Below are positions 30,466 to 46,774 of a stretch of 64,000 nucleotides of DNA, piece after piece (the stretch's first letter is position 1; each line of letters starts with the position of its first letter). Where the stretch lies: contig DAIDMD010000050.1 in the NCBI GenBank assembly GCA_027449165.1, positions 2,792-66,791 on the forward strand, written 5' to 3'. Under the pieces are notes generated by a model. The model did no database searches and was not told where the DNA came from. It worked only from the letters and a program-made list of their open reading frames with translations. This DNA comes from Acidiferrobacter sp. GTDB lineage: Bacteria; Pseudomonadota; Gammaproteobacteria; Acidiferrobacterales; Acidiferrobacteraceae. The position numbers and the translations under genes were made by a program.

Positions 30466-31216
30466 TTGCCCCGAAGTTGCCCCGAACGGAATACGTTTTC
30501 CCGTAGCCTTTCAAGGCGTTGTGAGAGCATCGGTGTTCCGCGCCCTGCCTACATGGCGAGGGTATCGATCAGATCCATCGCGCGCCGCTGGAGCGGGTTC
30601 GATTGGGTGGTCACGGTAAAGGTCGGGGCATCGGCTTCAGCGGAGGTGCGGCAGGTGTTGCGCACGATCGTGGCGAGCTCTGTGAGGAGTGTCGGGAAGC
30701 TGTGGATGGGCGTGCCGTCTGCGTGGCATCGCCGCGCGACCTTCGCTTTGGCCGCAGCCGAGCGTTCGGCCGGCGCCACCGGGTCGCGGGCGGCCTTGGC
30801 CGCCTGGTCCTCGTCGGCAAAGAGCAGTTCGCGCCAAGCCTCCTTCAGGTGCCACTCGACATAGTAGGCGAGCATACAGAGAAAGATATGGGCGCGGACT
30901 CTGTCGCTCAAGCGATGGTGGATGGGCCGGACCTTGAGGTCCACGGTCTTTAGGGAGCGAAACGCCCGCTCGACCTGCGAGAGCGATTTGTAATGGCGCA
31001 CGCAGCTTTCCGCATCGAGGGGGCGACCCGCGATTGGGCACGACATCGATATGCATGGCTGCGTTATGCACATCGTTCGCCAATATACAAGCATTGCACA
31101 CAACATTACATGGCTACATTCTCCTCGGCAAAATCGGGGCGCCAAACTCCTTACCACTTCCCTTTGTTCAGGTCTTACCAACGAGAGAAGGGAAAGTCCG
31201 GAGAACTTCGGGATAA
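30466..31216 (-). mobile_element. Internally deleted IS1634-family element
   Basis: N-terminal MHIDVVPNRGSPP (ATG 31056) abuts the C-terminal part YKSLSQVERAFRSLKTVDLKVRP...RVRAHIFLCMLAYY; imperfect terminal inverted repeats 30466-79 and 31203-16. Confidence 0.85.
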
Positions 31217-35702: not shown

Positions 35703-36721
35703 GTGCGCGCCCGGGCGGCCCGCAAGCGCGTTCCCGGCGCCGACGATCCCGAGGGCGGGAGAAGCCCAAGACCAACGAAGTGCCGGTTCACGGCGAAATC
35801 GCCCAGGATCGCGACACAAGCGCAGCGGCGGCGACCATATCGCTTTGTTCCCCGCGCACGGTATTGGTTGGTCCGGCGGGCCTTTGGCGTTGTCCTGATG
35901 GGGGGCGTGATCGCGATCGAATAGAGCATATCATGGCATATCACCGGATAACGCCGAGATAATGTGGATCACCCATGGGCTCAGAAAAGAGCGACCATGT
36001 TCGGCAAGCCGATCATCCCCATGTGAATGGCGCATGCGGATCCGGCAAGATCCCGGCGTGTGCCGATGGTGAATGCGAGTCGCTTTTCCATGCGTCGCTG
36101 TGCACAGGCGATGGCCGATCCGGACATCTGCAGTTTGCCGACGGGGGAGGGATATTTCGGTTTCCGGGAACGACTTCCCGCGGGTCTGAAATCGCGGGGG
36201 TTGGGCCATTCCACGGCAGGCAATCTATCCAATTGCGTGTCGTTTGGAGCGCTACATATTCGCAGATTGCCCTATAGGGAATTCGAATTGCCTTGGGCGA
36301 GAGGCGGATACGGAATTTGGTACGGGCGGCGATGGGGTCTTGCGAACACAGAACGCCGGTTCTAATATCAATGTATGGTAAAGCACGAGGGGGTCACCGT
36401 TCGGCGCCAATGCCCCCATCGCGAGCGGATGCGCTACTGGACATTGCATCGCCCTAGCGGGGCGCATGGAATGCGCGGGTCTTGGCTCCGGTCGGGACGT
36501 GGGCACGGTCGCAATATTATCGCGAGGGCGCGGCTGATTAGGAATGTGATAGCCGCTGCGCGGTAGGGCCTCGTTTCCTACGGTTGGCGATTCGCGCTTG
36601 GCACTTGCTGGCTCATGCGTTGGTAGCGTTGATTCCGATGCATTACTGCTGCATTCAAGAGGGGGTGGGCGCTCGGTTTTTTAGCAAGCCGCGGGGCGCC
36701 TCATTTTTTTGACGTTATATA

Positions 36722-36737
36722 GAACGAACGTTCGTTC
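36722..36737. promoter_or_regulatory. Perfect 16-bp palindrome, putative TetR operator upstream of dsrE2-tusA
   Basis: GAACGAACGTTCGTTC between TTGACG (36709) and the RBS. Confidence 0.75.
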
Positions 36738-36751
36738 AAAAGGGAGACATC

Positions 36752-37168
36752 ATGAAATCGCTGGCAATTGTGGTGCGCGATGATGGCTACGATAAGATCC
36801 TGACCCCGCTTGCGTTTGCTTATCTGCAGGCTGCGGAAGGCACCCAGGTGGACATGCTATTTGTGAACTGGGCGGTAAAGGCGCTTACCGAGGAAGGCGC
36901 TCGTGGGCTCAGGATCGACGGGCAGCACGCCGGGCAAGACGCATGGATTCGGAGGCAAGTAGCGAAGGCCGGGCTGCCGCCGGATATATACGATATTATT
37001 AAGGCCTTAAAGACTACCGGTCATGTGCATTTGTATGCCTGTAGTCTGGCATCGGCAATCTTCGGCGTCGATGAGGACAGCCTTATTCTCGAGGCCGAAG
37101 GCATCGTCGGCGCCTCGTGGTTTTTGAATGAGAAGGCCGCGAACGCCGAGCACAGCCAATACTTTTGA
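36752..37168 (+). CDS. Cytoplasmic DsrE2-like sulfurtransferase
   Basis: DMLFVNWAVKAL, LYACSLAS, GIVGASWFL; adjacent to tusA. Confidence 0.85.
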   Translation: MKSLAIVVRDDGYDKILTPLAFAYLQAAEGTQVDMLFVNWAVKALTEEGARGLRIDGQHAGQDAWIRRQVAKAGLPPDIYDIIKALKTTGHVHLYACSLASAIFGVDEDSLILEAEGIVGASWFLNEKAANAEHSQYF

Positions 37169-37180
37169 AAAGGGATTCAT

Positions 37181-37430
37181 TATGGCGCCCATGAAGTCGA
37201 ATAAGACGCTGGATACATCAGGAAAGTGTTGTCCAATGCCCATGGTCGAGACCAATCAAGCGATAAAGGGGATGAAGGGCGGCGAGGTTCTGGAGATAAT
37301 CGCCACCGACCCGGCTACAAAAATGGACATCCCGTCCTGGTGTCGACGTACCGGTAACACTTTGATAGAGCACGAGGAGGATGATAAGACCCTGCGGTAC
37401 TATGTCCGCAAGGTGGACCGGGCCCCCTAA
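37181..37430 (+). CDS. tusA: TusA sulfur carrier (start approximate)
   Basis: LDTSGKCCPMP, GEVLEIIATDP, DIPSWC. Confidence 0.9.
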
Positions 37431-37961
37431 ACCCTGGTGAGGCGGCCTACAAGAAGATCCCGTCCAGTGGGCCACAGCAAAGGCAGGGAGCTATCCATCG
37501 GCAGCGGCGCATGGCATAGCGAAGAGTCGTTGCGAGGGTGGCGCTGTCAGGCCTGGGGTGGGGTGCCTCCCCAGCTCGACGGGATCGGGTCACGACCCGG
37601 GTGTTCGTCAAGGATGGGAAGATCGGTGCCCGAATCAGAGGGGCCCGTGACGTTGATCGCCACCGCCAAGGGCCGGAGTCGCATGGGTGGCCCACGAAAT
37701 GCTCCGGCTCTGCCGGGGATTTGTTGTATGAGTCGTTATCGTACGGCGTTGCCAACGCAGGCTCGCCGTAGGATATCATTGCTCCTGTGTTCGGTAAGTT
37801 GCTTGCTGGGGGAATTGGCGGCGTCGCTTAGGGTTGTTGTGCGCAGGCCGCGGGCGCTCCACGATATAGGACGGGTTTTGTCGCGTTAAGGGATACCGTC
37901 AAGCCGCAGAGCGCCGCCAACCACTCTTGGAGTCGGTAGACCGCGCATTTAGGAGGGTTCT

Positions 37962-38636
37962 ATGCGCCAGAACACCGTAAAGAAGGCCGCGAGGCGCGGA
38001 AAGGCAGTGGTGGCCAGCGGCGCCAGTAACGTCCCCGCAGATCTATCCATATGGTCCGGATACTCACACGGCCGTGATGCGTGCGCGCGATCGATAATGA
38101 CAGTGGCGCTCCATCTGTTTGTTTCCAGGGGATACTTCAACACCACGATGCGCGATATCGGAGGTGAGGCTAATCTCAGCGCCGGTGCAATTTACTACCA
38201 TTTTAAAAGCAAGGAAGATATAGCGAGATCATTGTTCGATGATCTGGTCGCCAGCATGGGCCGACACTTCAACGATATCGAGGCACGGTACAACACCGCA
38301 CATGATAGGTGTCGTGCCGTCGTCGAACTACTATTCCAAATAGCCGAGGAGGAGCCGGAAGCCATGGAGTATATGCTCTATACTAAGCACCTGGAGTTTC
38401 TGGATGCCGGGATACCGGTATGCTCTTCAAAGCCATTTCGCCAGATGCGCGCCATGGTGCAAAAAGGCATGAAGAATGGCGAGGTGAGGCTCATGGATCC
38501 AACGGTCGCAGCCGCGGCGGTTTATGGGGGGCCGCTGAGAATGATTAGCATGCGCTTGGATGGGATCGTGGGAGTCAAATTGCCGACCTTGCTGGATGAG
38601 GTATGGGAATCGGCCTGGCGGTCGGTATCCGTGTAG
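37962..38636 (+). CDS. TetR/AcrR-family regulator
   Basis: ALHLFVSRGYFNTTMRDIG...AGAIYYHFKSKEDI HTH; SD AGGAGG; PVCSSKPF in ligand domain. Confidence 0.92.
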   Translation: MRQNTVKKAARRGKAVVASGASNVPADLSIWSGYSHGRDACARSIMTVALHLFVSRGYFNTTMRDIGGEANLSAGAIYYHFKSKEDIARSLFDDLVASMGRHFNDIEARYNTAHDRCRAVVELLFQIAEEEPEAMEYMLYTKHLEFLDAGIPVCSSKPFRQMRAMVQKGMKNGEVRLMDPTVAAAAVYGGPLRMISMRLDGIVGVKLPTLLDEVWESAWRSVSV

Positions 38637-39413
38637 CGAGGCCGAAGAGACGCGATTTTTGGGGATATCGTGAGACGGGTATCAATATCTCCGCTATCAA
38701 TCGAAGCGCATGGCCGGGATCCCCACATACAGCGAGCGGAGTCCGAATCACGCGCAGGGACATGTCCAGGGGCGCTTTGCGTTGGCACCGACCTGAATGC
38801 GCTGCTCGTGAAGCGCCTTCGGGGATCCGGTATTGCGCGGGGGCGCGGCCAGCAGGCTTCACATAAACGCGGGGCGGGGTCTGAGCCGGCTGTCGCATCC
38901 CTCTCAGGAACCGGTTCGCGCACGGGCCATGCATCGGCCGTCGTGTCGGCGTTGTCGTGAAGGGCCCCTTGGTGTCGGGTTGCGCCGGGCTTGCGCGGCG
39001 GGTTCGCGATCCACATGCCGTGCGCGCCGAGAACAATACGGATCGAGCCTCACGGCACCCCCCGACGGTCGTAAGGGGAGGGGCCATGAATCCGGATCCC
39101 TTCCATTACGGGATTATTAGGCCATACGCCGGTATGGGCATCGGCTTCCCAAATAGCGGACCCCGCCCGAGTCGCCCCTTCCATAAAAAACGCCCCCGCC
39201 CACGGGCCTTCCATGCCTCTGGCGGGCGGACCGCGTAGCCAAGCGCCCTAGCGGCCCCGCGACCGTGACGACGGACGGCTCCTTGCGGTCGCCGACGCCC
39301 CTGGCGCTGCAGATGCGCGCAAACGATAAGGCCGGGTCCGCCCGAATGATGAACCCCGGATCCGCCATGCGCTGCCGCAGCTGCGCCGCTGGCCCGCGAG
39401 GGTCGAGTATGCG

Positions 39414-40265
39414 TTAGTCGTATCCGAAATATAACGTGTTGTTAAGGAGGTCACTGAGCCCCTTATAGTCCGCACGATTGGCGGCAACGAACGGCTTGGA
39501 GACGAATATCGCGCGCAGCGTGCGTGTTACGGCGCGGCCCGCCGGCGACAGCAGGGCTTGGCGCATCCGTGCCTGGACGGCCTGCGGGATGTGCGGACTG
39601 GCGGAGATTGCTTGGTTCGGATAGGGCCGGAACCGATACATGATGTGGGCCGTATGGACGCCATGCTCCAGCTTCCGCAGATTGGGGACCGGCAACACCG
39701 CAGCCGCACACTGATGCGCCATGAGGTCCCTATAGGCAACGAGCCAGCCGTGGATGATGACCAGGGCGGGCTGTTCGACCGGATTGGGAAATTTGTGCAG
39801 GAGGATCAGCGTCCCGAGATAGGGAGGGGAGTTGGCGCAAACGGGGCGACCTATCAGCTGATGTATCCTCTCGAAATGCTCTCCGGCGCGCTCGACCAGC
39901 GCGAAGATCAAGGGTGCGGGAAACCGCACCAACGGTATGTAGCCCAAATGATGATCCCGCCATCCTGTGAAATGGGGACCGTCGAAGACCAGATCGTACT
40001 TTCCGAGCGTCATTTCCCGACTGTAGTTAAGCCAGGAGCCGGGATACTGGTACCTGACCGGGTGCCCGCTCACCGATGCCAGAAAGCGTGCTATGGGCGC
40101 GAAGACCGCCGTTTGCGCCTGCTTGCTCCCACGAGGTGGCGCACTAAGAACCCACGCATGGACCTCCGCAGGGGCATCGGTTCTGCTCGCGAACGCAGAG
40201 GTTGCGCCAGCCAGGGCGACGCCCGGCAGGGCCAAAACCAACACCATAATTCCCAACCACCGCAT
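39414..40265 (-). CDS. Exported PhnD/SsuA-like substrate-binding protein (orphan)
   Basis: Signal peptide MRWLGIMVLVLALPGVALA, SAPPR, YDLVFDGPHF, YPNQAI. Confidence 0.78.
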   Translation of the reverse strand: MRWLGIMVLVLALPGVALAGATSAFASRTDAPAEVHAWVLSAPPRGSKQAQTAVFAPIARFLASVSGHPVRYQYPGSWLNYSREMTLGKYDLVFDGPHFTGWRDHHLGYIPLVRFPAPLIFALVERAGEHFERIHQLIGRPVCANSPPYLGTLILLHKFPNPVEQPALVIIHGWLVAYRDLMAHQCAAAVLPVPNLRKLEHGVHTAHIMYRFRPYPNQAISASPHIPQAVQARMRQALLSPAGRAVTRTLRAIFVSKPFVAANRADYKGLSDLLNNTLYFGYD

Positions 40266-40724
40266 TGTAGATCCTCCCTGTCCTTTACCACGGTCGCCCT
40301 GCCAATGGGGTGGCCGGGCGTTCCTCGCCGGAAACGTCACGACTTCAATGTGCGCCCGGCAATAACTGTATAGGGCATCCATCGGCATAAGGCATGGCCG
40401 AATTCGACGGGCGTGTGAAATTCATGGACGATCGGTAGCGGGCCCGGACAATTAAATAAGAGTTCCAATGTGGTACGTATATAAGTAATGCATTCTGGAC
40501 ATTTGTATGGGTTCCGCATAATTCGGCGGTTGGATAAATAGCCATTACTGGGAAGGCCGTCAGACATAAGTGGGGCCATGGTGGTGGTTCTATGAGGAAA
40601 GCGTCTACGTTCGTGCGCAATTTAAGACGTACAGAATAGGAACGACCAAAATGCTTGCGAAAACAATGCAATGGAAGGCATTGTTCTAGAATACCGCGAT
40701 CCCAGAAAAGAGCCGGAATGGATC

Positions 40725-40774
40725 TTGACAGTCGGTAGAAGTTTGATATAGTCAAAAAACCGAACGCTCGTTCG
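40725..40774 (+). promoter_or_regulatory. sigma70 promoter plus palindromic operator upstream of the exported-DsrE/sox cluster
   Basis: TTGACA-16-TATAGT with extended TG, then CGAACGCTCGTTCG (40761-74). Confidence 0.75.
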
Positions 40775-40875
40775 ATATTGGGGTATTGGATTCTATATAA
40801 TCAATGATTAGTCAGCGGTGTTGCTAAGAAATCGCAAAATAGGCCTTTTCTAGGGAAAAGAGGGGGGGGGATGCG

Positions 40876-41445
40876 ATGTATAAGAACATTAGAATACTGC
40901 TGGCCGTTCTGAGTGCGGCATTGTTGTGGGGATGCGGCAAGGGTTCGGCAAGCCCCTCTTCCCAGAGGATCCTGGAGTTTCCGAATATTCCCAATATTCC
41001 ACAGAATCCGCATTTGTCGTTCGGTGGCTATTTCAAGCATCACCAGCCCGTTAAGATCCTGTTTGCCATAGGACAGCCCGGCGGGCAGGTCACCGAATCC
41101 CTGGTTAACGGGGCGCTGGTCCTACGGTATCTGGCGGCTCGTGGATATCGATACAAGATCCATTACGTGTTTTACAGCAAGGGCGTGCTGGTGGCAGACG
41201 AATTCAATCAGCGTTATAGCGCGGGTTGGGGCCCCTTGCTGAACGCCCTCCACAAGCAGGGGGTAACGTTTTCGGTGTGCCATAACGCCATGGCACTCCT
41301 TCACGTAAAGTCCAACGAGCTATATCCGTACATTCGGCCGATTCCGGCGGGAATATTGGAGATCGTGAAGTATGAAGAGCGGGGGTATGCGCCGATATTT
41401 AACCCGAATTCGGTAACCGGGCAAAACTTTTTGCACGTGAAGTAG
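40876..41445 (+). CDS. DsrE-family lipoprotein
   Basis: Lipobox LLWGC; FSVCHNAM; PAGILEIVKYEERGY. Confidence 0.75.
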   Translation: MYKNIRILLAVLSAALLWGCGKGSASPSSQRILEFPNIPNIPQNPHLSFGGYFKHHQPVKILFAIGQPGGQVTESLVNGALVLRYLAARGYRYKIHYVFYSKGVLVADEFNQRYSAGWGPLLNALHKQGVTFSVCHNAMALLHVKSNELYPYIRPIPAGILEIVKYEERGYAPIFNPNSVTGQNFLHVK

Positions 41446-41637: not shown

Positions 41638-42174
41638 ATGGGATTTCTAAAGGGACCAAAAAGAGGCCTGGCGGGAGTCTCGGCTATTCCGAGCGGGGCT
41701 CTCGCAGTCATTCTGCTGATAGTCTTTGCGCTGCAGCCGCTGCCAGCGATTGCCGGCACTCAGATGCCGCTGACGCGGAGTCGGGATGGGCACTCGTTGG
41801 CTTATTATAAGCATCGGACCTTCAAGGCAGTGTTTGAGGTGCCCGGTAACCCAAAGATGTGGCCGGCCGTGATCCTTGTGTTGACACACAATATTGCGAG
41901 TCTAATCGGGCACGGTATTCGGACGAAAATCATCCTCGTCGCCCCTGGCCCGACGATACACTTCTTTATGCCGAAGTACGATGCGGCCAATTATAAAAAG
42001 CTGGCGGTGTTACGGCGCTACGGGGTTCGAATGCTCGCGTGTCACGCCGCCCTTGTGGCGTTCAACGTCAGCAAAAAGCAGCTGTTCCCATTTGTAGGGG
42101 TCGCCTACCCGAACGGCGTCACCTACTTGCTCAAAAAACAGGCGCAGGGGTACCCCTACTACGTGTGGCCGTAG
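41638..42174 (+). CDS. Exported DsrE-family protein
   Basis: Signal/anchor helix; LVAPGPTI, MLACHAAL, PNGVTYLLKKQAQGY. Confidence 0.75.
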   Translation: MGFLKGPKRGLAGVSAIPSGALAVILLIVFALQPLPAIAGTQMPLTRSRDGHSLAYYKHRTFKAVFEVPGNPKMWPAVILVLTHNIASLIGHGIRTKIILVAPGPTIHFFMPKYDAANYKKLAVLRRYGVRMLACHAALVAFNVSKKQLFPFVGVAYPNGVTYLLKKQAQGYPYYVWP

Positions 42175-42255: not shown

Positions 42256-43116
42256 ATGAGAAAAGTCAGTGTATTAGGCGCCGCTCTTTGGTTCTGTGTG
42301 TCGTTCGGTGCGGCGAGTGCCGATGCACACCTTACAGTGCGCATTTTCGCTTCGGATGCGGTGGCGCAGCCCATAAGGCAGATAGGCTACCTTTTCGAGC
42401 GGGCGCATCCCAATGTTAAGCTGGACTACGAATTCGCGGCATCAGGGGTTTTTGTGGGGGCCATCAGGCAGGGGGTCCCACCGGATATCTTCATATCATC
42501 GAGCAACAAGGAGATGAACAGGCTGATATCCCTCAGCTTCATTAATTTCCCGCAGACGATCGCCTACGACTATTTTGCGGCTGCGACGCGCTGCACAAAC
42601 CCGGTCAATAGCCCGGGGTCGGTGCGGATCACCGAATCGAATCTGGTGCGCGAGATCGGATCTCCTAACGTCAAACTCGTTGTCGCGTCGCCGACGCTGA
42701 GCCCGGCGGGGCGGCATACCTTCCGGATGCTGGGAAGGATGGGCGCCGATGGCGCCGGTTCGTTTGCCGGCATCATGAGTCACTCCACGGAGGTCATTGG
42801 TCCGGACCGGGTGTTGGCGAAAGTGATGAGCGGCAAGGCGGATTTGGGGATCGTTTACGCTTCACAGATTGTGGCGGTCAAGAGAATGGGCGAGTGTCTG
42901 AACGCGATCCCCATCGCCAAGCGCTACAACCGGAAGGTGGAGTTGTCGGTTGCGCCCCTGAAGACGTCGCAGTTTCATTTTGTGGGTAGGACGAGAAGGC
43001 GCATCGATGCGGAATATGCGAGATTCCTGGTCTCAGAAAGGGCCCAGCGGATTTTTAAGGATTGGGGGTTGGTTCCGGTCAAGAACGAGCGGACCTTCTT
43101 TTCGCGTCTCTTCTAG
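42256..43116 (+). CDS. ModA-like oxyanion-binding protein (orphan, altered pocket)
   Basis: Signal peptide, FAASG, DIFISS, SPAG, ADLGIVYAS, AQRIFKDWG. Confidence 0.8.
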   Translation: MRKVSVLGAALWFCVSFGAASADAHLTVRIFASDAVAQPIRQIGYLFERAHPNVKLDYEFAASGVFVGAIRQGVPPDIFISSSNKEMNRLISLSFINFPQTIAYDYFAAATRCTNPVNSPGSVRITESNLVREIGSPNVKLVVASPTLSPAGRHTFRMLGRMGADGAGSFAGIMSHSTEVIGPDRVLAKVMSGKADLGIVYASQIVAVKRMGECLNAIPIAKRYNRKVELSVAPLKTSQFHFVGRTRRRIDAEYARFLVSERAQRIFKDWGLVPVKNERTFFSRLF

Positions 43117-43516
43117 ACGATCGGTCGGGGCCGTCGGCGCGGGCACAGGTGCCGCGGAGACGAAGAGCCGATGCGCATGGCGTTTGCCGGGCGGGAGTCC
43201 ACCTTCCAGGGCGCGTACGGACGGCGTTCTTCGCGCTGTCCGCGGCGGTTAAGGTGATGTTGGTACACGTTTGTTGAGACATGGGCGTGGGCGCAAACGT
43301 CCGAAGCGAGGGGATGGGGGGGTGGCGTAGCCGGGATGGGCTATCGGGGCTGCGCGGATCTTGGGGCCGGTGGGGCAGGCCGAAGGGCATCGAGAAGGGC
43401 GACGAGGGCGGGAACGTCCGGAGGCATGGAGGGGTGTCCAGGCGCGCCGGTGCTAGTGCCGTTCCCAGGGGGCTATGGATTGGCGTTACGAATGGTTTAA
43501 ACGGAGAACAGGTCAT

Positions 43517-44068
43517 ATGACGAGCGATGTGATAAAGCGCCGCGAATTTCTGCGAGGGTCCGTGACGGCGGTTCTTGCTGCCGCAGCCGGCGTCGGTCTG
43601 TTGCGCGGGCCACGCGCTAATGCGGCGACGATTCGCAATGTAGCGGGCTGGCCGGAGGCTTTCGGCGTGAAGGCGGTCAACAGGGTACAGGCCGCCTACG
43701 CTCAGGCGGCCGATAAGGTGCTTATGGAGAGCGTGGGAACGACGCATGTTCCGGTTTCGTCGCGGATTAAGATCTCGGCGCCCACTATCGCGGAAAACGG
43801 CGGTTCCGTGCCGGTGACGGTGTCCGTGGACTGGCCCATGACAGCCGATAACTATATCGAGGCGGTATATATGTACGTGTTTCATAATCCGGCGCCACTT
43901 GTGAGTGAATACCATTTTACACCCGCAAATGGCGAGGCCTACTTTTCGGAACGTATAAAAATGGCCAAGACCGATAATGTGCACGTTATCGCGAAGACGA
44001 ACAAAGGCGTGCTGATGGCAGCGGTGCCGCGCAAAGTGAAGGTTACGATCGGCGGTTGTGGCGGTTGA
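43517..44068 (+). CDS. soxY: Sulfur carrier SoxY
   Basis: Tat motif KRREFL, APTIAENG, C-terminal VKVTIGGCGG. Confidence 0.96.
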   Translation: MTSDVIKRREFLRGSVTAVLAAAAGVGLLRGPRANAATIRNVAGWPEAFGVKAVNRVQAAYAQAADKVLMESVGTTHVPVSSRIKISAPTIAENGGSVPVTVSVDWPMTADNYIEAVYMYVFHNPAPLVSEYHFTPANGEAYFSERIKMAKTDNVHVIAKTNKGVLMAAVPRKVKVTIGGCGG

Positions 44069-44103: not shown

Positions 44104-44433
44104 ATGGCACGATTTGGTAATCCCATGATCCGCATGCCGGGGCATGCAAAAAAAGGCGAGGTGATCGAGGTACGGTCGCTGATCATGGATCCCATGATCA
44201 CGGGTTTTGTGAAGAATAAGGCGGGTCGTATTCCGCCGGCGGATTTTATCGAGGAGGTTACAGTCACCTTCAACGGAAAGCTGCTCATGACGGCCGACTG
44301 GGGGACCGCAGTCAGCGCAAATCCGTATCTGGCGTTTAAGATGCGCGCCGAATCGAGCGGGACGCTCAGGATGGTGTGGCGGGACAACCGGGGCCGGCAT
44401 TGGAGCACGAGTGCGAGGCTGCGAGTGACCTAG
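44104..44433 (+). CDS. soxZ: SoxZ
   Basis: EVRSLIM.PM.TG, WGTAVSANPY, WRDNRG; follows soxY. Confidence 0.92.
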   Translation: MARFGNPMIRMPGHAKKGEVIEVRSLIMDPMITGFVKNKAGRIPPADFIEEVTVTFNGKLLMTADWGTAVSANPYLAFKMRAESSGTLRMVWRDNRGRHWSTSARLRVT

Positions 44434-44473: not shown

Positions 44474-45019
44474 GTGAGTGGATTTGGAAGAATCGCCATT
44501 GCGATGGTCATTGGGGCGCTCGTGGGTGGCGGAGTGGTCTACAGCTTTATGGGGCAGCGTCCTAAGGTGGCGTCGATCACCTACGTCAAGGGAATGCCGC
44601 CCGTGACGACCAATGACCCTTTGTATGTGGTCAACGTTCAAAAAGGAGTGACTCCTTCCCAGATTGCGATCGGCATCGAGACCGCGGCCGAGGGCGAGAA
44701 CATGAACGTGGTCGGGACGCTTAATATCGAAAAGGGCCTCAAGGCGCGAGGGATCAAGACAGACGAGCCCTATGTGATTTATGAGGTCTGCAATCTGGTT
44801 TTGGGTGCGGGCATTCTCAAAACCACCCCCGAGTTCGGGGCCTTCGCCCCTTGCAAAATCGTGTTGTTCGAGCAGGGCGGGCATCTCAAGCTCCTCACCT
44901 ACTTGCCGACCTATGCGCTGCGTTACTTCCCGCCCAATGCCGCGAGCGCTCGGGTGGCGAAGAAGCTGGATATTCTGATCATTCGGATCATGAAGCAGGC
45001 GGCGGCCGGCGGCTTTTAA
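44474..45019 (+). CDS. DUF302-domain membrane-anchored protein
   Basis: N-terminal TM, YVIYEVCN, FAPCKIVL. Confidence 0.75.
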   Translation: MSGFGRIAIAMVIGALVGGGVVYSFMGQRPKVASITYVKGMPPVTTNDPLYVVNVQKGVTPSQIAIGIETAAEGENMNVVGTLNIEKGLKARGIKTDEPYVIYEVCNLVLGAGILKTTPEFGAFAPCKIVLFEQGGHLKLLTYLPTYALRYFPPNAASARVAKKLDILIIRIMKQAAAGGF

Positions 45020-45046: not shown

Positions 45047-46774
45047 ATGCACTTGTCCAGACGGGATTTCTTGCAGTTGATGGGTGCCGCCGGTGCTGCC
45101 GGTTTTCTGACGCCGGGTGCCATCAAGGCGGCCTGGGGTGGTGAGAGGGATCCCTACGATATCCCGCCGTACGGCAATGTCAGCCTGCTGCACATGACCG
45201 ATTCCCATGCCCAGCTTCTGCCGGTGTGGTGGCGGGAGCCCGGCACCAATATCGGCGTGGGCAAGGCGTGGAATCAGACGCCCCATCTGGTTGGTAACTG
45301 GAAGTTACGATACTACGGCGTCAAGGCAGGCACTCCAGAGGGTTACGCGCTCTCATGCCTCGATTACGATACCCTTGCCCATCGGTACGGCAAGATCGGT
45401 GGCTATGCCCATATCGCGAGTATCGTGAAGCGTTTTCGCAATGATCTCGGTGACCGGATGATTTTCCTGGACGGCGGCGACAGCTGGCAGGGATCAGCCA
45501 CCAGCCTATGGACCAAGGCCGCTGATATGGTTGGTGCGCAGAACCTTCTGGGGGTTGAGTACTTTGTGGGCCACTGGGAGTTCACCTACGGTCAGGATCG
45601 CGTCAACTATCTCATTAAGCACCGGCTCAAGGCCCAATTCCTGGCGCAGAACGTCTTCACCATCCCGTGGCAGGAACCGGTATTCACCCCCTACGCAATT
45701 CACGAGGTGCGGGGATACAAGGTCGCCATTATCGGCCAGGCATTCCCGTTCACGCCGATCGCGAATCCCGCCTATCTTATCCCCGATTGGGGTTTCGCCA
45801 TCCACACGGGCCATATGCAGAAAATGGTTAACGAGTGCCGTGAGCATCACAAGGCGGACGTGGTGGTTGTGCTCTCTCACAACGGCGCCGACGTGGATAA
45901 GAAGATGGCGGGCCTCGTCAAGGGCATCGACATTATACTTGGCGGGCACACGCACGAGATCATGGGGCCGCGTCCTTTCAGGGTCAACGATACCCTGATC
46001 GTAAATACCAGCACCAATGGCAAGGTACTCGCGCGTTTTGATCTCGACGTGGGCAAGGGTCGTCTCAACGGCTGGCGCTACCACTTCCTGCCCGTTATCG
46101 CAAGTTTCGTGCCTGCCGACCCCGATATGGCGGCTTACATCCGCGAGGCCCGAGCGCCCTATCTCGCCCGGCTTGGCGAGCCCTTAGCGACCACAGAGAG
46201 CCTGTTGTATCGCCGAGACAACTTCAACGGCACTTTCGATCAGGTGATCTGTAATGCCTTGAGGGAGGAATTGGATTGCGAGGCGGCGTTTTCTCCGGGA
46301 TTTCGCTGGGGTTACTGCAAGCTCCCGGGCGAGACGATCACCATGGAGGATCTGATGGCGCAGACGGCCATCACCTATCCCGAGGCCACGATCACGGAGT
46401 ATACCGGCGGCGAGATCAAGAACATCCTGGAGCAGGTGGCGGACAACATCTTTAACAAGGATCCCTACTACATTCAGGGCGGCGATATGATCCGGGTTGG
46501 TCATATCGATTACACCTTCAATCCCAATGAGACTATCGGTCGGCGTTGTAGCGATATACGCATCAACGGCAAGCAGATGTCGCGAACCAAGAAATACAAA
46601 ATCGCCGGCTGGGCGGCAATGACGCGTGTCGAGGGCAAGGCGGTGTGGGATCTCGTGGCCAATTACTTGCGACGCGAGAAGACTGTCCGCGTTGATCGGG
46701 TCGACCTCCCGCGCTTGACGCGGAACATGCGGGGTAACCATGGCATCGCCTTCCCCGGAAAATACAAGATTTAG
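45047..46774 (+). CDS. soxB: Thiosulfohydrolase SoxB
   Basis: Tat SRRDFL, LLHMTDSHAQL, DGGDSWQGS, GHWEF, SHNG, GGHTH, SPGFRWG. Confidence 0.97.
   Translation: MHLSRRDFLQLMGAAGAAGFLTPGAIKAAWGGERDPYDIPPYGNVSLLHMTDSHAQLLPVWWREPGTNIGVGKAWNQTPHLVGNWKLRYYGVKAGTPEGYALSCLDYDTLAHRYGKIGGYAHIASIVKRFRNDLGDRMIFLDGGDSWQGSATSLWTKAADMVGAQNLLGVEYFVGHWEFTYGQDRVNYLIKHRLKAQFLAQNVFTIPWQEPVFTPYAIHEVRGYKVAIIGQAFPFTPIANPAYLIPDWGFAIHTGHMQKMVNECREHHKADVVVVLSHNGADVDKKMAGLVKGIDIILGGHTHEIMGPRPFRVNDTLIVNTSTNGKVLARFDLDVGKGRLNGWRYHFLPVIASFVPADPDMAAYIREARAPYLARLGEPLATTESLLYRRDNFNGTFDQVICNALREELDCEAAFSPGFRWGYCKLPGETITMEDLMAQTAITYPEATITEYTGGEIKNILEQVADNIFNKDPYYIQGGDMIRVGHIDYTFNPNETIGRRCSDIRINGKQMSRTKKYKIAGWAAMTRVEGKAVWDLVANYLRREKTVRVDRVDLPRLTRNMRGNHGIAFPGKYKI

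Follow-up and report, generated by a model that had tools for sequence, protein, structure and literature searches.

A TetR-family repressor with a predicted palindromic operator shared by DsrE2–TusA and Sox genes in an Acidiferrobacter genome

In a 64,000-nucleotide stretch of an Acidiferrobacter sp. genome (assembly GCA_027449165.1, contig DAIDMD010000050.1, positions 2,792 to 66,791; the window hereafter), a gene for a TetR-family repressor lies between two similar palindromes, which comparison with related loci indicates are very probably the operators of this intervening TetR. One of them (O1) precedes dsrE2 and tusA, and the other (O2) heads a cluster for exported DsrE-like proteins, a ModA-like binding protein and Sox components (Table 1). 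The original prediction, made from the letters of the window, had proposed that the TetR binds both sites and thereby couples dsrE2–tusA to the exported-DsrE/Sox genes; the gene calls reproduce the layout that it described, and the coupling finds support in phylogenetic footprinting. According to the explanation that we consider likely, a dimer of the TetR (37962-38636) would bind a 20-bp palindrome, TAGAACGAAYRTTCGTTCTA, of which this genome would hold two copies, O1 directly upstream of dsrE2–tusA and O2 at the start site of a strong promoter for the exported-DsrE/ModA-like/soxYZ/DUF302/soxB genes. The bound protein would block both units, and a single repressor would in this way link the sulfur relay of the cytoplasm with the Sox arm of the periplasm. 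Release would be triggered by a signal derived from sulfur, the most likely candidate being sulfane sulfur (persulfide or polysulfide) that acts on the invariant Cys154, possibly with formation of a bridge to Cys117 or to the residue at the Cys217 position. Within this explanation, comparative genomics provides the association of operator and TetR, the position of the operator in promoters and the target genes; that the protein binds, that it represses and to which signal it responds is what we infer.

The 16-bp core of O1, GAACGAACGTTCGTTC (36722-36737), is the perfect palindrome noted earlier before dsrE2–tusA, and 14 nucleotides separate its end from the dsrE2 ATG. That of O2, AACCGAACGCTCGTTC (40758-40773), is the close variant reported at the head of the sox cluster and has three mismatches to the palindrome. 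At this tolerance of three mismatches or fewer, O1 and O2 are the sole matches in the window (shuffled sequences gave a mean of 0.23 matches, and two or more in 4 of 100 cases), and only four matches occur in the whole assembly (2.08 Mb in 171 contigs, 66.7% GC, 77% complete). When the genome was scanned with a 20-bp weight matrix derived from relatives, O1 came first and O2 third. The weaker partial matches of the original prediction did not hold up: nothing scores near 40607-14 (best value −10.8 bits), and the interval 43081-43100, at the site given as 43083-98, reaches only 7-8 bits and is part of the ModA-like coding sequence, at its 3′ end. Two minor sites elsewhere in the assembly were treated as chance matches, namely C33:20394 (19.8 bits), which has neither of the two CG cores and falls at or within the ends of open reading frames (ORFs), and C96:7232 (14.8 bits); the protein comparison run linked neither of them to the regulon.

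O2 is intergenic, some 2.1 kb past the end of tetR, and begins 4 nucleotides after a near-consensus promoter, the TTGACA-16-TATAGT element that had been recognized from the outset. A second promoter-like site (TCGATA-18-TATAAT, 40772-40801, 10 of 12 positions) overlaps the right end of O2 with its −35 box. A repressor bound at O2 would, judging by these positions, cover both promoters.

The distribution of the palindromes strongly supports their assignment to the TetR. Orthologues of the protein (44-61% identity) are encoded in 6 of 40 related genomes, and a scan of one genome per species returned at least 394 stretches with TetR relatives, the best 80 of which were examined. These loci span Gammaproteobacteria (including Thiobacillus, Thiohalophilus and Thiogranum), Thermithiobacillus, Alphaproteobacteria, Desulfobulbales, other Thermodesulfobacteriota and Nitrospirota, and the palindrome accompanies the TetR orthologues across these phyla. 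In 72 of the 80 loci, tetR is accompanied by a site of at least 18 bits, no further away than 260 bp on the upstream or 300 bp on the downstream side, and 45 loci have a site on both sides. The 785 kb of sequence at distances above 600 bp from tetR, in contrast, contain one such site only. As the matrix was derived from sites taken from any part of these loci, the scores are partly circular, but the contrast in location is not. The consensus extends over 20 bp, and its outer TA, which was outside the search pattern, is 77-85% conserved. In three genomes (G016, G002 and G005) the order is palindrome, tetR, palindrome, dsrE2, tusA, and the second palindrome starts exactly 30 nucleotides before the dsrE2 ATG, the same distance as in the window. 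Across 41 related genomes, the exact pattern GAACGA-N4-TCGTTC was counted 13 times, eight of them at loci of tetR orthologues; the other five occurrences have off-consensus centres and are at the level expected by chance, as judged from the seven occurrences of a reversed control pattern. No site was detected at four loci with homologues of the DsrE-like lipoprotein gene that have no adjacent tetR orthologue (G039:C82, G029:C76, G015:C64 and G016:C87). In view of these absences and of the exact-pattern counts, the motif tracks the regulator and not the target gene. A variant palindrome of 16 bp, TAGAACGATCGTTCTA, in which the half-sites are as in the operator and the central 4 bp are gone, was seen in a Gallionellaceae metagenome-assembled genome (MAG; L082, 6929-6944) and twice in Parasulfuritortus (L106, 6959-6974 and 7583-7598). 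Its form would imply another phasing of the half-sites or another binding mode.

The position of the operators suggests how they would work. The region before tetR usually consists of cTTGACTA, the 16-bp core, TAGTMT, six nucleotides and the ATG, so that in most relatives the operator takes up precisely the 17-bp spacer that separates the −35 box from the −10 box, a layout typical of autorepression. Because the ATG follows the −10 box by only 6 nucleotides in the upstream regions compared (L028-L103), a leaderless tetR mRNA is predicted for most proteobacterial members of the family; the tetR genes of Desulfobulbales differ in having a leader with a ribosome-binding site. The copy on the dsrE2 side follows a run of T residues, probably the tetR terminator, and ends 12-16 nucleotides before the ATG, leaving room for a ribosome-binding site only. 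Both positions point to repression through promoter occlusion or a roadblock. The comparison thus places the palindrome at the promoter of tetR itself or of a neighbouring unit; in the window it stands before two neighbouring units and not before tetR.

The connection with sulfur oxidation is also seen in two other genomes of the same order. In one of them (G023, from a different family), the tetR orthologue adjoins soxB, and the divergent units dsrE_exp2–modA-like and dsrE_lipo–soxY–soxZ–soxB are separated by a region with two strong operators (37 and 31 bits); one of these operators follows a TTGACA-17-TATACC promoter, as O2 does in the window. In the other (G029), a 34.6-bit operator precedes dsrE_exp2–modA-like next to the tetR orthologue. 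Among the 80 loci, dsrE2–tusA follows tetR in 28, with DsrE2 sequences 67-87% identical to that of the window, and the target is an exported DsrE-like protein (167-177 aa, with signal peptide) in 13. The sole sequence match of the window DsrE2 in the PDB is 2QS7, which has been named a DsrE2B (PMC11094781). In the three Desulfobulbales loci examined (L054, L074 and L090), the gene after that of the exported DsrE-like protein encodes an exported Lcl_C-domain protein, and L074 also has a rhodanese gene. A flavoprotein with Pyr_redox_2 and Pyr_redox_dim domains is encoded behind the downstream operator in Desulfocicer vacuolatum and a Desulfobacterium MAG (L095, 7679-9073, and L097, 7703-9025) and resembles CoA-disulfide or persulfide reductases (CoADR-like). 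One distant member of the family precedes a gene for an AhpC-type peroxiredoxin. The common theme of the targets is sulfur transfer and thiol chemistry, and the functions found behind the operator, DsrE2–TusA, exported DsrE, rhodanese, the CoADR-like protein and SoxYZB, are those of a regulon for persulfide handling and sulfur oxidation. Two further arrangements were observed. A small Cys-rich protein (75-79 aa, CxxC...PPNLPP...TSCSL), for which no Pfam match was obtained, is encoded directly behind the operator in Thiobacillus and in one Ectothiorhodospiraceae locus, and another distant member (L130, 3667-3715) is divergent from a gene of the SBP56 (methanethiol-oxidase) family with two operators between them.

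The window protein is, on the evidence of Pfam, its modelled fold and the operator logic, a TetR-family repressor. The TetR-type helix-turn-helix (PF00440) covers residues 45-89 with 55 bits against a cut-off of 24; the AlphaFold2 model (predicted local distance difference test score 87.5, predicted template-modelling score 0.82) has nine main helices and one short extra turn; and Foldseek returned 372 chains at E ≤ 0.001, the best matches listed being all TetR-family proteins. It does not belong to the ArsR winged-helix family. A search of the PDB by sequence and fold for a named family or a close solved relative yielded generic TetRs only, with no more than 22% identity to any solved member, and no NCBIfam equivalog scored above its cut-off. 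In a maximum-likelihood tree the protein falls among the regulators of the dsrE2–tusA type (support 90/86), and across the orthologues the residues of the recognition helix are nearly invariant. A relic tetR upstream of O1 was considered and discarded: relaxed blastx matches on the minus strand at 36384-36491 are weak (E ~0.2), and the family hidden Markov model gave −0.3 bits (E = 50). The tetR copies closest to that of the window (61% identity over residues 81-217) were found in L024 (9634-11911; G001:C142) and L027 (G002:C27), where a gene for a 476-aa DDE_Tnp_1_4 transposase interrupts the reading frame behind residue ~82; in the flanks shown, operator and promoter included, these two species-level genomes are identical.

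Cysteines in the ligand domain, which had been pointed out in the motifs HDRCRA and PVCSSKPF, are present as Cys117 and Cys154. Among 65 operator-associated orthologues, Cys154 with its PxCSSxPF motif is retained in all, Cys117 in 55 and a cysteine at position 217 in about 50. In the model, Cys154 is part of the loop that joins helices 6 and 7, Cys117 stands where helix 5 begins, and position 217 belongs to the final helix, the element through which TetR proteins dimerize. Of about 55 clusters that make up the wider family at 50% identity (E ≤ 1e-30), the majority retain the equivalent of Cys154 and about a third are without it. Two of the Cys-less members have readable neighbourhoods, one with genes for an ABM and a multicopper-oxidase protein and the other with a PAS-domain gene, neither of them by sulfur genes, a sample too small to be informative. 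Because Cys154 is invariant and a second cysteine always present, persulfide sensing by the TetR is plausible, at odds that we put at even or slightly lower. The earlier proposal of a persulfide sensor is supported only in part: Cys154 is invariant and Cys117 frequent, and sensing itself may be called plausible only.

Several observations weigh against the explanation given above. The score of O2 is about half that of O1 (18.9 versus 35 bits), and besides its three mismatches in the 16-bp core, the change of A to C at core position 3 is rare, being found in 4% of the collected sites. The Sox link is rare: it was seen only in the window and the two genomes of the same order, and at none of the 80 best loci. 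The regulator itself is unusual. Its branch in the tree is long (1.42 against a median of 0.21), and in the recognition helix a Tyr (38196-38198) replaces His79, which is at least 95% conserved (IYYHF in place of IYHHF), so the specificity or activity of the window TetR may have drifted; the neighbouring DsrE2, in contrast, is 83-87% identical to its relatives. Unlike most of its relatives, the window tetR has no operator before it (best score −5.7 bits in a scan of the ~530 bp from 37431 to 37961). It lies downstream of dsrE2–tusA with a canonical Shine-Dalgarno sequence, and a weak terminator-like hairpin (37702-37718) stands between the O1 unit and tetR; autoregulation has therefore either been lost or would occur only through read-through from O1 across this hairpin. 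A promoter scan found no clear sigma-70 promoter for dsrE2. From the lower score of O2, its rare C and the lack of sox genes at the 80 best loci, it might be argued that the TetR controls dsrE2–tusA only, through O1, and that O2 is a decayed site or a chance match, there being no joint regulon in this genome; the unrelated site C33:20394 also scores as high as O2. We regard this as unlikely. Given the genome-wide rate of such scores, a site of the strength of O2 would be expected in the 490-bp promoter region only about 5 times in 10,000, and O2 is intergenic and immediately follows a near-consensus promoter. Moreover, the orthologous exported-DsrE, ModA-like and soxYZB genes of G023 and G029 have strong operators in the same relative position, and two genomes of the same genus also have the unusual AACCGA half-site of O2, in their case at a tetR paralogue promoter. 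O2 is, in our estimate, quite likely to be functional. It is highly improbable that the palindromes are RNA hairpins, terminators or the operators of another regulator: although O2 was flagged as terminator-like on the minus strand and O1 would fall in the 5′ leader of dsrE2, in relatives the palindrome occupies the untranscribed −35/−10 spacer of tetR, and its presence follows the TetR orthologue and not the target genes. As a minus-strand terminator O2 was rejected, no minus-strand gene ending there.

If the joint regulon under one TetR is accepted, the question of the signal has to be considered separately. Release might be effected by a small molecule (thiosulfate, sulfite or an organic sulfur compound) bound in the ligand pocket, with no covalent change of the protein. 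Most characterized TetR proteins bind their ligands non-covalently, and the closest structural matches of the window TetR include ligand-binding members such as FadR and DarR. In addition, several Cys-less sister clusters keep the fold, and some of them retain operator-like sites; DNA binding would therefore not depend on the cysteine, and this residue may not be the sensor. The constant presence of a second cysteine is likewise a hint only, since the absence of sequences without both Cys117 and Cys217 (none seen, about two expected) is not significant. Pocket binding is a possibility that we take seriously without holding it to be the probable one. Against it stand the invariance of Cys154 and PxCSSxPF in the 65 operator-associated orthologues, always with a second cysteine, and the nature of the targets, persulfide carriers and related enzymes (DsrE, TusA, rhodanese and CoADR-like proteins), genes that are typical of the regulons of known sulfane-sulfur sensors (PMC10451225, PMC12423496, PMC9918477).

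Table 1. Features of the window and, in the last row, a small Cys-rich protein of related loci
Feature	Position	Strand	Basis and remarks
Operator O1 (predicted)	36720-36739	.	TAGAACGAACGTTCGTTCAA; 16-bp core a perfect palindrome; best site of the genome, 35 bits; position relative to dsrE2 shared with relatives
DsrE2-type sulfurtransferase, cytoplasmic	36752-37168	+	138 aa; active-site YACS; Pfam DrsE_2/DsrE
TusA sulfur carrier	37182-37430	+	82 aa; CPxP cysteine motif; Pfam TusA, 90.7 bits
TetR-family repressor	37962-38636	+	224 aa; Cys154 in PxCSSxPF; own Shine-Dalgarno sequence; Pfam TetR_N, 55 bits; AlphaFold2; Foldseek; alignments
PhnD-like binding protein	39414-40388	-	Gene call
Sigma-70-type promoter	40725-40752	+	TTGACA-16-TATAGT; 11/12 positions; TG before the −10 box (extended)
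Operator O2 (predicted)	40756-40775	.	AAAACCGAACGCTCGTTCGA; starts 4 nt past the −10 box; 18.9 bits, genome rank 3
Exported DsrE-like lipoprotein	40876-41445	+	Pfam DsrE; signal peptide/lipobox; orthologue behind an operator in G023
Second exported DsrE-like protein	41638-42174	+	Pfam DsrE; orthologues behind operators in G023 and G029
ModA-like periplasmic binding protein	42256-43116	+	Pfam SBP_bac_11; TIGR01256, 65 bits (cut-off 62.5)
SoxY	43475-44068	+	Pfam SoxY, 114 bits
SoxZ	44104-44433	+	Pfam SoxZ, 111.5 bits
DUF302 protein	44474-45019	+	Pfam DUF302
SoxB thiosulfohydrolase	45047-46774	+	Tat signal; TIGR04486, 799 bits; Pfam
Small Cys-rich protein (related loci)	L067 913-1152; L071 7664-7903; L076 7686-7925; L055 3290-3517		L055 is from Ectothiorhodospiraceae

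The PhnD-like gene, for which no homologue was found in the related TetR loci, was not included in the regulon. Between it and tetR lies a GC-rich stretch of 780 bp (38637-39413) with short ORFs only; the one that was scanned (39117-39368, minus strand) has no Pfam match, and the stretch may be a decayed gene. The segment from about 30.5 to 47 kb has a GC content of 50-63%, against 66.7% for the genome, and its genes have a lower GC content at third codon positions; a fragment of a DDE transposase is present at 30549-31181. The sulfur locus has the look of a mosaic acquired by horizontal transfer, with a single regulator for two modules that are controlled separately elsewhere.

The classical local repressors of the family (TetR, QacR, AcrR and Bacillus FadR) share with the protein described here the N-terminal helix-turn-helix, the nine-helix fold and a palindromic operator over their own or adjacent promoters. 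They differ in sequence (the window protein has no more than 22% identity and no NCBIfam equivalog, as noted), in lacking the invariant cysteine of the α6–α7 loop and in their targets, which are efflux or catabolic genes instead of sulfur-transfer and Sox genes. In the literature searched, the regulators known for sox and shdr genes are of the ArsR type (PMC10451225, PMC12423496, PMC13122954) or two-component systems (PMC5093147). The former, such as SoxR and sHdrR of Hyphomicrobium denitrificans, SoxR of Cupriavidus, SqrR and BigR, are also repressors encoded by sox, tusA and dsrE-type genes with operators before sulfur-oxidation operons, and their conserved cysteines have been proposed or shown to sense sulfane sulfur (PMC10451225, PMC12423496, PMC13122954). 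They are, however, winged-helix proteins with a different operator, whereas the present protein has the TetR fold and a role of its cysteine would be suggested by conservation. The persulfide sensors CstR and YrkD of the CsoR family control operons for TusA, DsrE, rhodanese and CoADR-like proteins (PMC9918477), a target set similar to that found here for a TetR-family protein; CstR and YrkD are nevertheless all-helical tetramers, unrelated in sequence and in DNA site. Within the TetR family, NemR and RcrR reportedly act as thiol-switch sensors of electrophiles and chlorine and would thus provide a precedent for regulation of this fold through modification of a cysteine, although the stresses that they are said to sense and their regulons are different. 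Neither protein was among the listed best 60 of 95 PDB matches, and no specific sequence relationship with them was seen.

No TetR regulator of dsrE, tusA or sox was described in the literature searched. The finding is that of a known kind of regulator, a TetR repressor, with a new biological role: a widespread and apparently unstudied TetR family accompanies sulfur-transfer genes in many sulfur bacteria. So far, the regulation of dissimilatory sulfur oxidation has been attributed mainly to the ArsR-type SoxR and sHdrR and to a few two-component systems; here, regulator family, operator consensus, promoter layout and target genes could be defined from sequence alone. The poorly understood exported DsrE-like proteins would be marked as co-regulated with DsrE2–TusA, which may provide a clue to their function. 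Since the family is present in cultured strains, among them Thermithiobacillus tepidarius DSM 3134 (L059, with tetR–dsrE2–tusA), Desulfogranum mediterraneum DSM 13871 (L090, with tetR and an exported DsrE), Desulforhopalus singaporensis, Desulfocicer vacuolatum, Desulfoluna butyratoxydans and Parasulfuritortus cantonensis, laboratory tests of the hypothesis are within immediate reach. One may speculate, tentatively and with somewhat less than even confidence, that this protein is the founding example of a sulfane-sulfur sensor with a TetR fold, in which the loop residue Cys154 and a second cysteine would become persulfidated or bridged, possibly with sulfur delivered by DsrE2–TusA, releasing the deeply conserved 20-bp operator and switching on cytoplasmic and periplasmic modules in hundreds of sulfur-oxidizing and sulfur-disproportionating bacteria, including Sox in some lineages. 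If the cysteine is indeed the sensor, the family would add a new fold to those of the known persulfide sensors.

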